From contig OX597824.1 of NCBI GenBank assembly GCA_951406725.2, forward strand, positions 57,226,001 to 57,290,000: a DNA stretch of 64,000 nucleotides, in the 5' to 3' direction. The notes under the pieces are model-generated. The model had not been told where the DNA came from, made no database searches, and was given only the letters and a program-made list of their open reading frames with translations. Shown in pieces: positions 1,268 to 58,829 of this stretch. Both the position numbers and the translations under genes were made by a program. Each line of letters begins with the position of its first letter. Within the stretch, counting starts at the first letter, position 1. The stretch comes from Octopus vulgaris. Lineage: Eukaryota.

Positions 1268-2712
1268 TAGATAATAACATGAACTAGATAAGACACAACA
1301 CAAACAAATGAAAGAGAAAATAAAAAAAGAATATTATAGACGAGTTAGATCAATACTAAACACAGAGCTCAATGCTAAAAACAAGATAATAGGTATCAAC
1401 ACTTTAGCTGTCCCAGTTATAAGTTACAGCTACAATATCCTTAACTGGACACGAAATGAACTGACCAAAATAGATAGGAAAACAAGAAAAATAATGACAG
1501 GATCTAGGATGCATCACCCAAAATCTGACATAGAAAGACTATATATACAACGTATAGAAGGTGGTAGAGGCCTTATACAGCTGGAAAACTACTATAAAAT
1601 AACCACCATAGGACTGCAAAAATATCTACTTCAGAAGGAAGGAAAATTGATCCAGATAGCGGCAAAACACGAGCAAAACAAAAAACTGTTCTCAGTATTT
1701 AAGGAAGCTGACAAATACAAACAAGAAATCATACCACCTAATAAACATGAAGAAGAAGAAGAAGATGAAGAAACAACAAAAGCTATAAAACAAATGAAAT
1801 CCAAACTAAAAATAGAACAGCAACGAACCATGATAAAACGATGGCAAGAAAAGCCCCTTCATGGTAAATACTGCACTAAACTAAACGCAAAAGAAATAGA
1901 CAAAGAAAAATCCCAGCAATGGTTGAGAAGCTCAGGACTCAAAGCAGAAACAGAGGGATTTTTAATTGCAGCACAAGACCAAAGCCTCCCCACCAGAAAT
2001 TACCAAAAACATGTAATGAAAAGAAATATTACAAGTAACTGCAGAATATGTGGAGATGGACAAGAAACAATAAATCATATTATCTCTAGCTGCCCAGTCT
2101 TGGCTAAGAAGGAATATATTCACAGACATGACAGAGTTGGAACCTACATACATTGGAAGCTATGCCAACATTATGGAATAACAACAGAAAAAAGATGGTA
2201 TAGGCACACACCAGAAAAGGTCACAGAAAACGAGAAAGCAACCATACTCTGGGATATGCCGATACACACAGAGAAAAATTAAGGCCAACAGACCAGATAT
2301 AGTTGTCAGAGATCATGAAGAAAAAAATGCTTTCTAATTGATGTATCAATACCGGCTGATGACAACGTGTCTCTAAAAGAAATGGAGAAACTCTCAAAAT
2401 ACAAAGACCTGGAAATAGAGGTAACTAGAATGTGGAATCTGAAAACAGAAACAATTCCTATCATAGTAGGTGCATTAGGCATGATAAAAAAATATTCAGA
2501 CAAATACATAACAAAAACACCAGGACTTACAAACACATATAACATACAGAAAATTGCACTACTAGGCACTGCACACATCCTACGCAGAACACTTTCCATA
2601 CAATAACCATCAGAGCATCACAACAAATCACAGCACATACCCAAGGCACACAGAGCTGTGCTCGGTAGTGAAGTGAAAGCACGCTATAAAAATAAAAAAA
2701 GAAGAAAAAAAG
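1268..2712 (+). mobile_element. 5'-truncated R4/Dong-clade non-LTR retrotransposon (RLE type) inserted in (AAT)n
   Basis: ORFs 1308-2282 and 2367-2606 carry HPKSDIERLY, AAQDQ, a CxxC-H-C knuckle (CRICG...HIISSC), RHD and KYKDL; the RPD motif lies in the frameshifted gap. A-rich tail; (AAT)n on both flanks. Confidence 0.9.
1308..2606 (+). pseudogene. RT C-terminus, zinc knuckle and restriction-like endonuclease of an R4/Dong LINE, frameshifted near 2275 and again near 2325
   Basis: Two consecutive ORFs with contiguous LINE motifs. Confidence 0.85.
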
Positions 2713-25831: not shown

Positions 25832-27200
25832 CTATAATGATAGAGAATACTTATATGAACTAAAGGTGTGTTTTTGCCAATGTTTACATCGGTATACACG
25901 CTCTATAACCGTGTTTACTAGAGGATTTTTAGAAAAAATAATGAAAAATAGTTCATAATTACAGAGAAGAAAGAATTCTTTGCCTTTGTCATAAGGTATC
26001 GAGATTGAGAGAATCAACCATTTTAAAATAAATTGTTCATTGCGGTCTTTTAGATCCCAAATTAATTTACTGAGCCCAATACTGTTACGTTTATTCCCAT
26101 CCCTAAATGTTGAGTAATAGATAGAAATTCTTTTAGATAACTCTAATGATGTGCTTCCAGTGTAAAATCGTACTTTACTACGAGTACTGATTATACACTG
26201 GTATTTAGAATTTTTAATTTTAGTGTTACTTGACATAAACTTAATTCTGTTGGAATTGACTTCAGATACAATAACCTTGTTAGCAATATTTCTAGAGGGC
26301 TAGATAGTATTAGCTAAATTAATGCTAGTATTAGTAAATGTATTAATATTTAACAGTTTGTTATTATGTAAAGAGATAATTTTAAAGAGACTTTTTGTGT
26401 TGGAAAAACCAATCCTAACCGTATGTGAATTGATGATAGTGTAATACCTAGAATTCTTAAGAAAATTCATAACAATAGCATGACGAAATTGGAATGGGAG
26501 ATTAGATTTAAATTGTCTCCCGTATGGAACAAGGAACCAAATATTTTTACTACTATTTATCTTATTTTTGGTGTAATTATTTTTGAAAGTCTTACATTTA
26601 CTTTTAGAATGATAATAGGGGATTAAATAAGGGTTATCTCCCTTCCTCCGCTTTGTATCTGTGCATAAGTTATGCTTGTTATCGATAATTCCTTTACAAC
26701 TAGACTTCATATCTACACTATTGACGTTAGAATAAGACTGAATAGAATCAATGTAGGAAATTTTCTCTGAATAACATGCTTTAAGTAAGGCAGAATTATA
26801 AAATTCAGCGCTATCATTGAAAATGTCAATATTAGCAGATAACCTAGATAATCTAAATGAAATATTCTTAACTAAGTTCTTAGTAATTGTCTTAGAATGA
26901 TTACTAAATTTGCTAATGTACTTAAGATTGGTTAATGGTTTATGATATAGGAAATAAGAGTTATTGTGCAAGTTAAGTGTAATATCTAAAAAGTTGGCCT
27001 TCGTCATATCATTATCAAAAACGATGCTTAAGCCCATCCTACGGAAAAACTTTACTAACGTATTCTTAATTTTTTGTACCTTGTGGTTGGAAACATTTTG
27101 GAAGTAAAGTAAACAATCATCACGATATAGACCTCCATTAATGTTAGGGAACTGTTCTGCCATTTCAAAAATGTATAAAAATATACCTGTAATATTTTCA
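25832..27200 (-). pseudogene. PLE reverse transcriptase and GIY-YIG endonuclease, disrupted
   Basis: Two consecutive ORFs with PLE motifs separated by stops or a frameshift. Confidence 0.85.
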
Positions 27201-27374
27201 TACATATATACATTTACATATATACATGTATGAAAATAAGACGTAAACGCATCAACACCGGTTGTCAAGGGGTTATGGGGACAAACAGATGTATGTGTGT
27301 GTGTGTAAATATATATATATATATATATAAATGAAAGAATGGAGTTGAACGACGATTTAACAAAATTCCTTTAT

Positions 27375-27455
27375 TCTCGACATATGTTTCGAAGACTGCA
27401 TATTCCTAATTTCGAAGGAATAAGGGGTGCATTATGCCGCCTTCTCATCAGGAAA
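27375..27455 (-). ncRNA. Type I hammerhead ribozyme
   Basis: UUUC CUGAUGA GAAG...CUUC GAAAC AUAU GUC GAGA. Confidence 0.8.
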
Positions 27456-27870
27456 GACAAGGAACTTATGTCAGCATCATGATGAACAAAAACTTTTAGA
27501 TGACTGCCCACACGGAGTCCATAGCGACTAATTTACTTAGTCCTGTGCTTTGTTGTTTTCTCTTATATCGGAAAGTTGAATAATGATTGGAAATCCTCTG
27601 GGCTAATTTAGAAGTAGTAGCCCCAATGTAGAAGACACCGGTACCGGAAGAAATTTTTTACTAGTGTAAAATTTCTTCCTATTCTTAGATCTCTCCCCTT
27701 CCAACCTTGTTTGAACTCTTGAACTTTCTAGAATCTTCTACATTCAACCATTTTTGACGTCACTGCTTAAACGGAATATTTTAAAGAAACACTCATTATC
27801 GCTATGGACTCCGTGTGGGCAGTCATCTAAAAGTTTTTGTTCATCATGATGCTGACATAAGCTCCTTGTC

Positions 27871-27951
27871 TTTCCTGATGAGAAGGTGGCATAATGCACC
27901 CCTTATTCCTTCGAAATTAGGAATATGCAGTCTTCGAAACATATGTCGAGA
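27871..27951 (+). ncRNA. Type I hammerhead ribozyme (inverted copy)
   Basis: tttc ctgatga gaag...cttc gaaac atat gtc gaga. Confidence 0.8.
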
Positions 27952-28149
27952 ATAAAGGAATTTTGTTAAATCGTCGTTCAACTCCATTCTTAAATTTATT
28001 TGTATTAAAAAAAACACACAAATTTCCACACGAAAGCACGTGATCTCTGCGCTTGGCATGTAGCTTCAACCGTGTTTTTCTGACGTGAATTTGCTTCCCG
28101 GGTATCGGTTAACCGAATTATCCATACTAGGATAATTCATTCAACTACT

Positions 28150-30395: not shown

Positions 30396-30444
30396 TTCAA
30401 TACAGACGTCAGTTTCGGCAATTTCCGCTGCCTCATCAGTTAAG
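30396..30444 (-). ncRNA. Type I hammerhead ribozyme
   Basis: CUUAA CUGAUGA GGCA..UGCC GAA ACUG ACGU CUGU A UUGAA. Confidence 0.75.
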
Positions 30445-31405
30445 CCTGCTCGATTGGTCCGCTCTTTCCGGGTCTACTTCGCTATTAGTACTTATTCTTT
30501 TGTCATCCAAGTTATTGGATGATTTAGTGATTCTCTAAAGTGTATATATAATATTAATATAAACAGCAATTTTCAATGTTTCACCAAAAAGGAGAATTAT
30601 AATTGTCAATAAATGTGACTAGGGTATTAGGAAATACCTACATTGCTAGAAATAGGAGCTAAAGCATTATAATGCTGTAGACAACGTACATGAATAATTA
30701 CTTATATACACTAACAGGGGTCTTAATTGTCCGAAAAATGCCGATCTAGCATTCTTAATACTGACGTCAGTTTCAGCAGTTTACGTTGCCTCATTTGTTA
30801 ATCTCGCAAACAGCTGTTTATATTAATTTTATATATACACATTAGCTAATCGCAAAATCCTATAATTTGGATGACGAAAACAAATACTAATAGCGAAGCA
30901 GGCCCGAAAAGAGCCGAACAATCGAGTAGGCTTCACTGATGAGACAACAGAAATTTTCGAAACTGACGTCAGTAGTAAGAAATCTCGAGTGGCATTTTTC
31001 GGACAATGAAGGTTTCTGTTAGTGTAGATGTTTTCATTCATGTGCGTTAACTACAACATTAGAGTGCTTCAGCTTTTATTTCTAGCAACGTAGGTGCTTC
31101 TTAACACGCTCGTTACGTTTAGTGACAATTATAATTCTCCTTTTTGGTGAAATATTGTAAACTGCTGTTTACATTAATTATATATATATTCGTTTGTTTG
31201 TTTTTTCTCATTTGTTCTCTTGTTTGTTTGATTTCCCGTATTGTATTCTCTTTTTATTTCTCGTCTTGTATTTTTTTGTACATGTATTTTTATCTTGTAT
31301 TTTATTGTACAGTTTTATTGTTACATCCTGTTTGTGTTCTTACCCGTTTTACCCCGCTGCTTGGAATATTATTTTAATTCTCTCGCAGGAAGGTCTTTTG
31401 ACGAT

Positions 31406-31463
31406 GTGTCCTGTCTTGCCTTCGAAACACGCCTGAGTTAACTAGCGACAGCTGATGACGGTG
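31406..31463 (+). ncRNA. Candidate non-circularly permuted hammerhead, copy 1
   Basis: GUGUC^ CUGUC uug cCUUC GAAACAC ... GACAG CUGAUGA cGGUG. Confidence 0.65.
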
Positions 31464-31652
31464 GATTTTTCCTCGTTTAGCATGTCCTGTACTTGTTTTC
31501 TTGTTGTAAATTTTTCGTTTTTCCCGTTTCTACGTCTTGTTGTGGTGTCCTGTACTTACGTATATTTATTTATATATGCATGTATATATACATGTAGATG
31601 TAGGTACGTACATATATGTTTGTATGTATGCATATATTTTTATTTATTACAT

Positions 31653-34646: not shown

Positions 34647-36075
34647 TAAATGAAGGCTCTGGTATTCAGCATGCAAGCATGAAAGAGAAGGTTAGGAAAA
34701 AATGTTATAGAAAAGTTCGAGCAGTCCTGAAGTCTGAGCTGAATGCATATAATAAGGTTTTAGCCATAAATTCCTTAGCAGTACCAGTTATTCTTTATAG
34801 CTTCAATGTGCTTAACTGGAATACCAGTGAAATAAGAAAATTGACAGAAAAATCCGCAAGCTACTAACTTGTAATAAGATGCCCCATCCAAAGGCAGACG
34901 TGGATCGCCTTTACCTTCCCTGAGCTCAGGGAGGTCGAGGTTTGATCCAGCTTGAACTTACATACAAAACTACCACAATCGGACTGGCCAAATACCTTGA
35001 ATCAACCAACGATTGGATGCTAAAACTTGTTGTAAAACATGAAAGACCTAAAAAACTTCACTCTATTCTCAAAGAGAGCAAAAAATTCGCTGCTGATCTC
35101 TTAGATACCCACCAGATTGATCAGGCTGAAGAAAATGCGCCAGCTGCAGCTGCAAAGAAAATAAAATTAATTGCAAAGACAAAGCACATGGGAACAGCCG
35201 TAGCAAACAAGCTGATGTCGACCAGAAACACACGCACCAATGGTTACGAAGTTCAGGGCTAAAAGCAGAAAGTGAAGGTTTCATATTAGCTGCTCAAGAC
35301 CAAAGCTTATTTACCTGGAACTACCAAGCCAATGTGATGAAAAATGGAGCTGACCTAAAATGCCGATTCTGTATCGATGAGATTGAAACAATAGACCACC
35401 TAATCTCAGAGTGTAGAGTCTTAGCACCTGCAAAATATAAAGCAAGACATGACAGAGTCGGCCTGTATTTACAATAAAATCAAAGCCGCTAACAAATGGT
35501 ATAAACACCATCCTAAAGCTGTGACTGAGGGAGAAAATGTGTCGATTCTATGGGACTTCCCCGTGCAGACCAACAGGACTATAAAAGCTAATAGACCAGG
35601 TATTATTATAAAAGATCAGACAAAAAGGATGTGTTTATTAATTGACATGAGTATTCCCTGTGTTCACAATATAGCGGCGAAAGAATTTGACAAGATTAGT
35701 AAATATAAAGACCTGCTAATGGAAATTGAAAAAATGTGGCATCTCAAGGCGACTACAGTACCAGTGATTGTAGGATCTCTGGAAATGATAAAAAAAGGTA
35801 CTGAAACCTATTTGAAAATGATTCCAGGCTTGCCATCCCTAGAGGAAGTGCAAAAAATTGTATTAACTGGAACGGCTCATGTACTGAGAAGAGCACTATC
35901 GCTGTGAAAATAACATCCATCCATGAATCTATTTATTTATTAATTTTTAAATATATATTTTATCTGTGAATTTGCGCATGTAATCTGGGAATTCATACAA
36001 TGCCCTTCTCTGCCCTAGGTGTATGGAAAACACTCGGCGAGAAACGGAAGAAAATTTGAAGAAAGAAGGAAAAAA
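34647..36075 (+). mobile_element. Degenerate R4/Dong LINE 3' half
   Basis: ORFs 34679, 34942 and 35449 are colinear with 1308-2606; (AAT)n tail. Confidence 0.9.
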
Positions 36076-45358: not shown

Positions 45359-45606
45359 GGATAAATGTAAAAAAACACAAACTGGGACAAGAACGCAAAA
45401 CATTTAGAAGACGATACAAAAAACGGACGGGACATTCGAAGCCTTCGATCTTCAGTCAAAAACCGGATCATCTTCGCAATTTCGGCTGATTGTATGTATA
45501 TATACGGGAAGCTTTATGAAAATATTTGATTTTGATTTTGATTTTTCCAGTTTCAGCTTATGAGCTGTGGCCATGCTGGGGCACCGCCATTTTGCTGGGG
45601 CACCGC

Positions 45607-50344: not shown

Positions 50345-50472
50345 TATGTGGGCACAGGACGTCACGAAATGTGTACAACAAAAAATACGAAGCACGAGTA
50401 CATGGAACATGAACTATTCTTTCGAACAACGAAAGACACAAATGAAAAACAAAACAGACAACATAAAGGTCG

Positions 50473-50536
50473 ACCCTTCATCAGTTCTTGGCTGTTTTTC
50501 TAGTTTCGTATTTCGAGCATTTAACAACAATATACG
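50473..50536 (-). ncRNA. Candidate non-circularly permuted hammerhead, copy 2 (divergent subfamily)
   Basis: CGUAUA^ UUGUUG uuaaau GCUC GAAAUACG ... CAAGAA CUGAUGA a GGGU. Confidence 0.65.
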
Positions 50537-50799
50537 CTTTCGATAAAACAGTTGCTCCCGCAAAGCAAATCAAATAAAATTTGGGATTTTGCGGAAGGTC
50601 AAAACACGTCACTGTCCTGTTTGTGTTACCAATTTTATATTATTTATATTATTATATGATTGAACGCCACGCATCCTCTTCCAAGTATGTATGTATGTAT
50701 GTATGTATGTATGTATGTATGTATGTATGTATGTATGTATGTATGCATGCATGCATGCATGTATGTATGTATGTATGTATGTATGTATGTATGTTATGT

Positions 50800-54267: not shown

Positions 54268-54829
54268 TATTTATTGAATATTTGCATGACTGAGCGCCCT
54301 CGCGTCGTTTCGTTTCGTTTCCTTTCTGTTCTCCCAGTAAGTTTTTTATACATAATTATGACGCGGAACTCTATAACCCTTTGCTTGACCTTCCCTTCCT
54401 TCCTATCTGTCTTCCTCTTTATCTGATTCTCTCCTTCTTATTTTTCACTCCTTTTTTTCACCCTTTCTGGTTTCCTTTCCTGTCTCTATCTCTCTCTCTC
54501 AGTCCTCCTCATCTCTCTTACAGCCAGGTCGACCAACTTCCTTTCGCTGGCGGCTTCCTACAAGTGAACACGCTTTTTTCCTGCGCTCTTAAAAATTTTT
54601 CCTCGTCTAGGCTAAAAAAAGGCCCTCATTGTTTGTTTTCCTGTTTGTTTTTATTTCTTGTACTGTATTTTTTGTATTTGTATTTTTATTTTCTATTTGT
54701 TTTTTATTCGTATTTTTATTTGTATTATTTTTACGTCATGTTTTTGTCACATTTTTTCTCTCCTTGTTTTTACCCCTCTGCGAAGGAATTTTATTTAATT
54801 CTTTCGGAGGAAGGGCTAGTTCGACGAGT

Positions 54830-54891
54830 CGTGTTCTGTCCTTACCTTCGAAACACGCATGGAGTCGAACTACGGACAGCTGATGAAGGGG
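54830..54891 (+). ncRNA. Candidate non-circularly permuted hammerhead, copy 3 (best preserved)
   Basis: CGUGUU^ CUGUCC uua cCUUC GAAACACG ... GGACAG CUGAUGA a GGGG; within a (TA)n-flanked element at ~54290-55110. Confidence 0.7.
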
Positions 54892-55132
54892 AATTTTCCT
54901 TGTGTTGTTTGTCTTGCACTCTGTTTTTTCGTTGTTCAAAAAGGTCCGTTTCCATGTTTGTTTTTACGTTTTCGTCTGTCGTTGAGTTCTACGTCTATTT
55001 GTGGTGTCTTGTACTCACGTATATATATTTATATATGCATGTATATATACATGTAGATGTAGGTACGTACATATATGTATGTATGTATGCATATATTTTA
55101 TTTATTAAATATATATATATACATATATATAT

Positions 55133-56344: not shown

Positions 56345-57930
56345 ATTGTACTCCCCGTGGTTTCTGTTATAACTATCACATTTAAATTATATTATCAAAG
56401 CTGGAATCTCTCCGATTCCAGACAGTGATGTGGCTTTATGAGAAAGTGTTGTGGTCAGGTTGGAGTCAAGAATTCTTCATCATCAGTTGACCGCCAAAAC
56501 GGAACCATTAAATCAAAACTTTAGATTCCCAACAATCTTTAATTACACAATAAACAGAAAGAAAATGTCGTAAACTTCACAAAAAAAGATTTTGCATGCC
56601 AAAAGTTTTTTTTATGTACTGTTGTGGGAGTGATAATGGCACTAATGGTGGTCGTTGTGGCAGTGGCGGTGGTGGTGACAATTGTAGTTGTGGTGGTGGC
56701 AATCGTATTATAGTTTTGATGTCATTGTTGTGCTTGATAGTGTTGTGATTGTGGTCCTGTTGTTATTACTGCCGTTGTTGTTTTTATTATTATAAATGTG
56801 TCTTGTTGTTTGTGGCGTTGATGGTGCTACTTTGTTAATGGTAGCAGATGTCTTAATGGTGTATCATGATGGGATAATTATCCATGTGGTGTGGTTGTTA
56901 TTTGAACCCAGGACCTTCCTGTTGGTCGCGTACTGGCTGCAAATCCTGCTGAGCTTAACTTAGCTTTCATCACTCCAAAATCGACAAAATAAAGTACTTG
57001 TCAGATACTGAGATCAATGGTAACCCTTCCCTTTCAGGGCCGATAATATAATTACTATTCTAGCACTTGGGTGTATATAATCAATTAGGCACCTCCACTT
57101 CCAAAATGTTAGGCTACGTGCACATAGTTTAAAGGATTATCTTTATTCTACTATCATACTTAGTATAGAGGTGAGGATGTTGCAACGTGGTTATGTTAGT
57201 ACCACAGGTAATGGTAGATGTCGTGACAATTGTAGATAAGGTAAAGTTGGGGTTTGTGGTGTTATTGGTTGTGATGGTGATACTAATTCTCGTAGTGTTA
57301 GTGATGGGCTGGTAGTAGTAGGAGGTGATTTTGGTGGTCGTGATGGTATTTCTTCCTGTACATTAATCAATGATTGCATTTAGACCATCAGAACCGTCAG
57401 CTGATTCCCTCGGAAAAGTTGCCTTCCCCCACAACAAGAAGCTCAACAGCCACAAGTACTACTACAAACGCCGCTCATCTACTCGAATAGATATCTACTC
57501 GTATAGATATCTACTCGCATGTATTCTTATTTATCTACTTGTTGTAGATAGATAATATTCACCATCTATTTACTCGTATGTATTCATACACAGATCTACC
57601 TGTATACACACATTTGTCAACCTGTATACACACACATAAATACGCGCACGCGCATACACACACACGTGTATATGTACCTAAATATGTATCCATCTACCTA
57701 TGTATGTATGTATATATATATATATACATATAATATATAAATATATGCATATATACATACATATATGTACATATCTACATATATATGTATATATACATGC
57801 ATATATGGGTACATGACATAAAAAAAAACGTTGGACACAATGAGAAACGAAAACAGAAAACGAACTGTTTTTCGAATAACGAAAAAAACAAACAAACAGA
57901 GAAACGAGACATGCAACATAAAGAGTATTT

Positions 57931-57990
57931 CCCTTCATCAGTTGTCCATGTTTCATTTACTCCGCGTTACGAAGGCAAGGACGATACGCG
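57931..57990 (-). ncRNA. Candidate permuted hammerhead, copy 4 (GAAA mutated to GUAA)
   Basis: CGCGUA^ UCGUCC uug cCUUC GUAACGCG ... GGACAA CUGAUGA a GGG. Confidence 0.55.
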
Positions 57991-58370
57991 ACTTCGTTGA
58001 AACAGTCCTTCCCGCAATCCTTTCTGGTTTTCTCTCCCACCCTTCCCTATTCTTTTCCTCTCCTCTTCACCATTCCCTCTTTCTCACTCTTCCTCCTTGA
58101 CGCTCTCGTCGCTGACACGTGATGAAAAGGAATCTATCTTTCAGCTCATTCCTTTCCTAAAGACAACACGTGCTTACACCTGTCTCCTCTCATAAGATCG
58201 TCTTCCTAGTGTTCATAATACTTTTTCTATCGTCTTGGCTTTACAGCCCTCACTGTTTGTTTTTACTGTCATGTTCTCACTGTTCTGTTCTTGTTATCAC
58301 TTTCACCCTCCGCAAAAAATCCCAAATTTTAATTTAATTTGCTTTGCGGGAAGGACTGTTTCAACGAAGT

Positions 58371-58431
58371 TGCGTATTGTCCTTGCCTTCATAACGCGGA
58401 GTAGATGAAACAGGGACAACTGATGAAGGGG
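58371..58431 (+). ncRNA. Candidate permuted hammerhead, copy 5 (GAAA mutated to AUAA)
   Basis: UGCGUA^ UUGUCC uug cCUUC AUAACGCG ... GGACAA CUGAUGA a GGGG. Confidence 0.55.
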
Positions 58432-58829
58432 AATATTCTTTATGTTGCATGTCTCGCTTCTCAGTTTTTTGCGTTATTCTAAAAAATGTTCGTTTTCTAT
58501 GCTTTTGTTTTAATGTTTTCGTTTCTCATTGTGTTCAACGATTTTTTGATGTCCTGTACCCATATATGCATGTATATATGTATATATATGTAGGTATGTA
58601 CATATATGTATGTATGTATATATGCATATATTTATATGTTATTTATATTATTATATGATCGAACGCCACGCATCCTTTTCCAAGTAATATATATATAAAT
58701 TAGAAAAAAGCACCTTTTTTGAATTATACCATTTAGCAAAATAACATATTATAGAAAGATTAAGTTAAACATATAACGATGATTAAGTAATGTGCAAAAT
58801 AATAAATAAAACGTATATATTTGGTAGAA

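Follow-up and report, generated by a model that had tools for sequence, protein, structure and literature searches.

The stretch of Octopus vulgaris DNA analyzed here (64,000 nucleotides, referred to as the window) contains CUGAUGA cores of related repeats at 31452 (+), 50484 (−), 54880 (+), 57941 (−), and 58420 (+). The stem I, II, and III sequences of the 50484 copy differ from those of the other four cores, as the initial annotation had pointed out. A search with the Rfam hammerhead families (types I–III) gave 0 matches at gathering score within the window. On the minus strand, U16.1 of the window copy is located at 50532, A17 at 50531, GAAA at 50514–50511, and CUGAUGA at 50484–50478, and the blocks follow in the order S, G, C. 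Block S (50536–50525) comprises the stem III 5′ strand (50536–50532), A17, and the stem I 5′ strand (50530–50525). Block G (50519–50507) consists of the stem II 3′ strand (50519–50515), GAAA, and the stem III 3′ strand (50510–50507), and block C (50490–50478) of the stem I 3′ strand (50490–50485), mismatched at 50487 in this copy, and CUGAUGA. Cleavage is predicted between 50531 and 50530. HDV, twister, and the hammerhead types I–III were considered as identities and were excluded by strand order. From the sequence comparisons presented here, the locus is probably a decayed copy of an ORF-less repeat, the RNA of which is predicted to fold as a self-cleaving hammerhead that the chain enters and leaves via a four-way junction between A9 and G10.1.

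Six subfamilies of the repeat (A–F) were sampled with the 30 best copies each. The repeat unit measures ~650–900 nt and is devoid of ORFs. Copies end at a constant 3′ position, and their 5′ ends differ from one to the next. The longer copies, inserted in (TA)n, consist of a partial tandem or include an inverted arm. Cores were spaced 620–897 nt apart in 15 of the 180 loci, and upstream homology stops in a partial tandem. For subfamily B, to which the window copy belongs, a first look at the 2.8-Gb genome gave 3211 candidates, and the 23-letter B core pattern matched exactly at 455 places. Capture-recapture (12/90) yielded a size of ~3,400 copies, which is probably low; the two B matches and one family N match in a random 200-kb sample were too few for a copy number. 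The window was initially thought to hold five separate copies. However, the cores at 57941 and 58420 are the inverted arm (57892–58017, −) and the main arm (58290–58469, +) of a single subfamily A insertion, and the number of insertions is therefore four, with subfamily C represented at 54751–54930 (+) and subfamily D at 31320–31500 (+). The main arm of the subfamily B insertion (50345–50604, −) is 92–93% identical to the B copies L014, L022, and L025, is 5′-truncated 4 nt before helix e, and runs into (TA)n. It is accompanied by an inverted 28-nt piece of the unit (50609–50636, +; 93–100% identity to B copies in the opposite orientation), the native place of which is just 5′ of the ribozyme, and by a terminal segment with a 30–40-nt tail (50633–50687, +). 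The latter is the 3′ terminus that had been described as shared with the element at 58316–58686. The likeness was confirmed (93% over 55 nt, 50633–50687 versus 58632–58686), but the segment lies on the plus strand here, opposite to the ribozyme, on an inverted arm.

Helices and strands of the RNA are arranged in the order e, f, f′, a, b, S, a′-GAAA, b′, CUGANGA, e′. In six of six subfamilies, the stem II 3′ strand preceding GAAA has a perfect partner of 5–6 bp ~65–73 nt upstream of CUGANGA, in the exact register for G10.1–C11.1. In the window copy this partner is 50553–50557 (−; G10.1 = 50557), located upstream of the cleavage block; it forms 5/5 Watson-Crick pairs with 50515–50519, and it covaries. 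The bases after A9 give 0 bp as stem II at offset 0 and 2–4 wobble-rich bp at offset 1 in A–F. Instead they pair further upstream as helix e, the 3′ strand of which (50472–50477) begins right after A9 and has 50595–50600 as its partner, with one U-G pair in this copy. Hairpin f (50558–50594; 7 bp, 50588–50594 with 50558–50564) bridges the helix e 5′ strand to G10.1 with zero-nucleotide junctions, so that no spacer separates it from helix e or stem II. The abutment of e and f amounts to 7–13 bp, compared with 3 bp for the second-best register. Helix b (50545–50551 with 50492–50498 in the window copy; 5–10 bp across families) prolongs stem III across a GA-rich internal loop, a tandem GA with a 3-nt bulge in B. 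The kink-turn signature (3-nt bulge followed by tandem G-A/A-G) fits B and F; the bulge is 2 nt in A and E, and C and D have the tandem GA without a bulge. The linker between stems I and II measures 5 nt in B. The full structure thus spans 50472–50600 and not 50473–50536, and the stem II partner, which had been placed after CUGAUGA, is found upstream. Likewise, the upstream flank thought to be shared with the 58316 element is no flank but helix f of the fold. The similarity itself was real: between the B and A majority rows the e/f segment is 94% identical, compared with 66% for the core and 71% for the 120 nt downstream, as expected if the supposed flank is hairpin f. Of the helices, RNAfold returned f and b and missed the stems of the pseudoknot (z −2.2). 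A greedy helix picker selected different partners for helix e (subfamilies C and D) and for stem II (family H), and abutment-constrained runs resolved these cases. Taken together, these pairings suggest that helices e and f and stem II make a four-way junction between A9 and G10.1. In such a structure e and f would stack, stem II would stack on the core, and A9 would be held against G10.1, replacing the usual backbone link.

In another reading of the same pairings, the RNA would be a type-SGC hammerhead of the ordinary kind in which a single base bulges out after A9 and stem II is formed downstream; a, e, and f would then act as an off-switch, keeping both strands of stem II occupied until the RNA refolds. 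A downstream stem II of 4 bp with two wobbles can be formed in A, B, C, and F. Over A–F it was 91.3% paired, compared with 97.8% for the upstream stem II, where three of four pairs covary. A bulged base at this place is usual in PLE hammerheads, and according to the accessible text of PMC4209133 stem II of these ribozymes can have a base left unpaired at its 5′ end. However, the downstream helix is down to 2 bp in D and to 3 bp with two wobbles in E, and its duplex energy was −0.2 to −3.3 kcal/mol, against −4.9 to −8.0 kcal/mol for the upstream helix, in six of six subfamilies. An off-switch would need neither the exact G10.1–C11.1 register nor the zero-nucleotide junctions. Three further families, G (with a partial, sequence-unrelated copy of the same architecture at 45389–45494, −), H, and N, which were obtained independently of A–F, served as a tie-breaker. 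They are without sequence likeness beyond the core and have an upstream stem II of 6 bp, abutting e/f helices of 14, 9, and 7 bp, respectively, and a stem I to stem II linker of 1–4 nt. The downstream stem II reaches at most 0, 0, and 2 bp in these families, which leaves only the upstream pairing. The same wiring was thus found in nine families (A–F, G, H, and N), with the best stem II partner upstream in 9/9. Family H (L235–L264) also speaks for the off-switch to some extent, since two upstream strands (7 and 6 bp) can pair with its stem II 3′ strand; only the second, 6-bp strand leaves e and f formed, and family H may switch between two folds. Overall we regard the off-switch as unlikely and retain the upstream stem II.

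A quite different explanation is that the pairings arose without any selection, either by chance or because template switching in an AT-rich repeat produced them incidentally. Inversions and switches are frequent in these elements, and copies inherit changes jointly. Against this, the topology descriptor gave 2 matches in 5.26 Mb of shuffled sequence, neither of them complete (0 with helices e/f), and the wiring recurs in unrelated families. A pattern scan of metagenomes, in which 80 of 120 stretches were covered, gave 0 that passed the S-G-C test, and its matches were taken as chance. In the six majority rows A–F, all positions of the six helices are paired without a mismatch, and all pairs are Watson-Crick except for two G-U pairs. 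Stems I and III of subfamily B, the complementarity of which the initial annotation had made the decisive point, are fully Watson-Crick in the majority row (6/6 and 5/5, respectively). Covariation was scored in an alignment of 47 of 48 copies, the chimeric E copy L141 being omitted. In this alignment 90.8% of the cells were paired, compared with 41–48% in slid controls, and 13 of the 29 pairs had changed on both sides; the subfamilies are related, so the two-sided changes are not independent and both pair and cell counts are inflated. The two-sided pair count was reached by 39/500 column shuffles and the cell count by 0/500. Helix b was only 72% paired in the automatic alignment owing to register shifts. 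Between subfamilies B and A, 7 of 27 pairs are different, and in 7/7 both sides have changed. When B was compared with the five other subfamilies, 39 of 40 differing pair comparisons were two-sided and one was one-sided, although these are not independent either. The expected covariation of paired positions between subfamilies was therefore observed, and an origin by chance or template switching appears very improbable. Within subfamily B, a sublineage has swapped stem I pair 5 (C-G 14, U-A 63, C-A 0, and U-G 3 copies), which counts as one event. The compensatory set of subfamily B, this sublineage swap, and the test for neutral decay described next are the new contributions of this locus, and no other natural compensatory set in the window is as informative as that of B.

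Individual copies gave a different picture from the subfamily majorities. Departures from the majority, CpG sites excluded, amounted to 264/9685 (2.7%) in stems and 235/7814 (3.0%) in linkers (p = 0.27). Without A13, the core departs less (20/1247, p = 0.004); with A13 included it is level with the linkers. The decay rates were taken from the copies nearest each query and are therefore low overall. Stems I–III were fully paired in 18 of 61 pattern-picked B copies reaching helix e. Because stems decay like linkers inside subfamilies, the filter appears to act on source elements rather than on inserted copies. Neutral decay of the inserted copies, together with founders of subfamilies that kept the fold, fits what selection on source elements predicts, and in combination with the two-sided changes between subfamilies it argues that the fold is required in the source elements. 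If spread was limited to source elements in which the fold was intact, two-sided stem changes would become fixed in each subfamily. The initial proposal that the structure was kept by selection for ribozyme function during amplification can be upheld in part: selection fits, provided that it acts on source elements, and ribozyme function itself is a prediction. The window copy has 8 differences from the B majority, including G-G at stem I pair 3 (50528/50487) and the helix e wobble, and the stem I mismatch has probably impaired it. In four runs (organisms A, C, D, and E), contigs contained subfamily B with the majority base at 50487, which indicates no more than its presence.

The core bases vary only where hammerheads allow it, N7 being U, A, or G and H17 being A, C, or U. 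CUGANGA, GAAA, and NUH with A15.1–U16.1 are present in the majority rows of B–F, G, H, and N; in subfamily A, A13 was changed in 17 of the 27 nearest copies. The AUA triplet, as in B, is known from a natural active hammerhead (PMC1636495, available text). We take the fold to be real and consider it likely that the RNA cuts itself. An alternative is that the fold was kept for another job, such as binding of the reverse transcriptase or protection of the RNA end, and that cleavage is slow or depends on a protein or another copy. Poor in vitro cleavage of metazoan PLE hammerheads (reported in the accessible part of PMC4209133), the absence of 5′ ends at the exact cut, the GUU triplet of subfamily C, and the frequent A13 changes in A are compatible with such a role. 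However, nine families with little else in common keep all catalytic bases, only N7 and H17 being variable, and a single unit holds three full-length stems. Conservation for a purpose other than efficient self-cleavage is accordingly judged improbable, and self-cleavage is preferred.

Two peculiarities of the core were observed in addition. A13 of GAAA (e.g. at 58391–58394) is a mutation hot spot in A, E, and F (loci L031–L060 and L141–L200). Of the 17 substitutions in subfamily A, 14 are to T, 6/28 E copies are substituted, and indels occur as well, compared with 0/90 in B, C, and D; the T in subfamily A showed no linkage to other variants. Recurrent reverse transcription errors at a modified A (for example m1A, in the T-loop-like TTCGAAAC context) are our guess for its origin. 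Subfamilies C and D carry the TTCGAAAC context, yet are without the hot spot. In subfamily C (54840–54850; L061–L090), one of the youngest judging from identity, the cleavage triplet is fixed as GUU, which is unusual for hammerheads.

The predicted cut was compared with the 5′ ends of genomic copies. A word situated 90 nt past the predicted cut was used to pick 90 B copies, of which 39 were long and 51 truncated. The 5′ ends of 14/51 truncated copies fell 1–14 nt after the predicted cut and 4 within the 15 nt before it. Relative to a uniform distribution the post-cut cluster gave p = 7e-5, with a 15-nt bin chosen after seeing the data; without two unclean ends it comprised 12/49 copies (p = 7e-4, bin likewise chosen afterwards). 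Truncated B copies starting exactly at the predicted cut numbered 0/51, and three started at +1. In family N, 1/30 copies begins at the predicted cut, subject to the ambiguity of the TA target. A second cluster of 5′ ends (7/51 truncated B copies) was located 63–70 nt before the cut (~50593–50600), at the helix e 5′ strand. No RNA entry on record was listed as carrying the repeat. Three raw RNA runs from a related organism had 376–660 unstranded reads each on the B unit. No pile-up of read ends was seen at the predicted cut in these runs, which are from a fragmented library and mostly 85–95% alike. A joint closing the unit was not detected above the listing threshold in the RNA reads, and tandem genomic copies would mimic one. 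At L022 (1543/1596), reads of the three runs (19, 24, and 10) join opposite strands within the ribozyme, most simply through transcription of a genomic copy that, as in L470, is inverted internally. In tandem copies (e.g. L014, L025, and L043) the tail ends in GTAAG, resembling a 5′ splice site, and is followed by a long pyrimidine-rich stretch; a 5′ intron is frequent in PLEs.

Features of the Penelope type are present in the repeats, namely partial tandems, an inverted 5′ arm, a tail at one end, 5′ truncation, and a microsatellite target. No ORF with an N-terminal GIY-YIG and a C-terminal reverse transcriptase was found beside the first 120 A–D loci. A C-terminal GIY-YIG fragment beside L026 was considered as the partner ORF and set aside, since it lies on the opposite strand and has a different 3′ end. 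A Pfam search of PLE and Naiad fragments gave nothing useful. Family H sits 3′ of an ORF end in 1/30 loci, which we take to be HERO-like from its peptide. For family N, 379 exact matches were found in the genome, and 1/30 fetched copies keeps a reverse transcriptase end ~1.2 kb upstream. Family N matches the published Naiad_Obim and Naiad_Ovul 3′ ends (File S5 of PMC8557442). The octopus Naiad consensus 3′ ends in this file have the same wiring by eye, and so do 30 genomic copies; in the Naiad_Esco 3′ end given there, S-G-C and helix b could be made out by eye, without a clean stem II or e. Comparison of A–F with family N, the only Naiad family compared, gave core-level scores only (best E 0.017 in a tiny set). 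Since A–F have no homology to N beyond the core, the assignment of a Naiad as mobilizer relies on architecture and insertion pattern, and since HERO-like elements share the fold, the mobilizing enzyme is not fixed to Naiad.

In the proposed mechanism, the RNA would cut after the NUH triplet (50531|50530) and release unit-length RNA from tandem transcripts. The unit RNA, linear or circular (circularization has been proposed for PLEs in the available text of PMC4209133), would be copied into DNA by a Penelope-like enzyme, with a Naiad as the most plausible candidate. In the accessible part of PMC8557442, Naiads are described as being without canonical hammerheads, and Naiad_Ovul is flagged “HHR_half_core”. 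On balance, we lean toward the view that the split hammerhead is the missing Naiad ribozyme, shared with the HERO-like elements of a different class and required for the copying of these elements and of their noncoding derivatives, and that the turnover of whole stems between subfamilies may record repeated selection for it.

The closest known relatives in structure are the type-SGC hammerheads (HRIMA-1 and variants; Eckert et al. 2023, PMC10085705). As far as the accessible text of that paper describes them, they share the S-G-C order, the pseudoknotted core, the standard core bases, the short linker between stems I and II, and an extra helix that joins the outer strands of stems I and II. 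In type SGC, however, CUGANGA continues straight into stem II, and an insertion of more than 1–2 nt is assumed in that text to be absent, whereas in the octopus element the 5′ strands of stem II and helix b are upstream and the chain ends exit via e/f between A9 and G10.1. With block C broken in this way, CUGANGA not being directly followed by stem II, the element falls outside type SGC as defined. Viewed as a circle, it is the SGC ribozyme of Eckert et al., opened between A9 and G10.1 and not within a linker. With Naiad PLEs (Craig et al. 2021, PMC8557442, accessible text), A–F share partial tandems, an inverted 5′-truncated arm, a 30–40-nt tail, and (TA)n targets, insertion features given there for Naiads as well as for other PLEs. 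Unlike Naiads, A–F lack an ORF, and outside the core their sequence does not resemble the Naiad tail. The non-LTR retrozymes and the pLTR hammerheads of PLEs (bioRxiv 10.64898/2026.07.22.740005; PMC4209133; available portions of both) are likewise noncoding, tandem, hammerhead-bearing, and probably PLE-mobilized; these are type I, often minimal and dimeric. In contrast, the octopus element is non-circularly permuted, and each unit contains the complete set of stems. Its unit is also longer and for the most part dispersed; the element consists of ORF-less head-to-tail units, as non-LTR retrozymes do, but has the order S-G-C in place of a type I hammerhead in each unit. The accessible text of Perreault et al. 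(PMC3088659) describes only short core insertions, and within the accessible papers and passages searched, no description of the split-core wiring was found. If our reading is true, it adds a fourth hammerhead break point, which the sole paper on non-circular permutations assumed to be impossible in its accessible text, and moves such permutations from metatranscriptomes to high-copy repeats of an animal genome. It would also explain why hammerhead descriptors missed the Naiads, flagged as only a half core, and would have implications for the question of whether PLEs need their hammerheads or just carry them along.

Other mobile element remains were noticed in the window. ORF fragments of non-LTR retrotransposons are located at 1278–2282 (+), with a weak zf-RVT match, and at 35425–35907 (+); no split-core ribozyme was found 3′ of either fragment. 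The region 25832–28005 contains, on the minus strand, a broken Penelope-like reverse transcriptase plus C-terminal GIY-YIG-like ORF. It is adjoined by inverted repeats at 27321–27527 and 27799–28005, each with a CUGAUGA core in the ordinary order. Hammerhead-like cores at 30439 (−), 30936 (+), and 28832 (+) are, by eye, ordinary type I or minimal PLE motifs, and one of the three has an extra A after A9.
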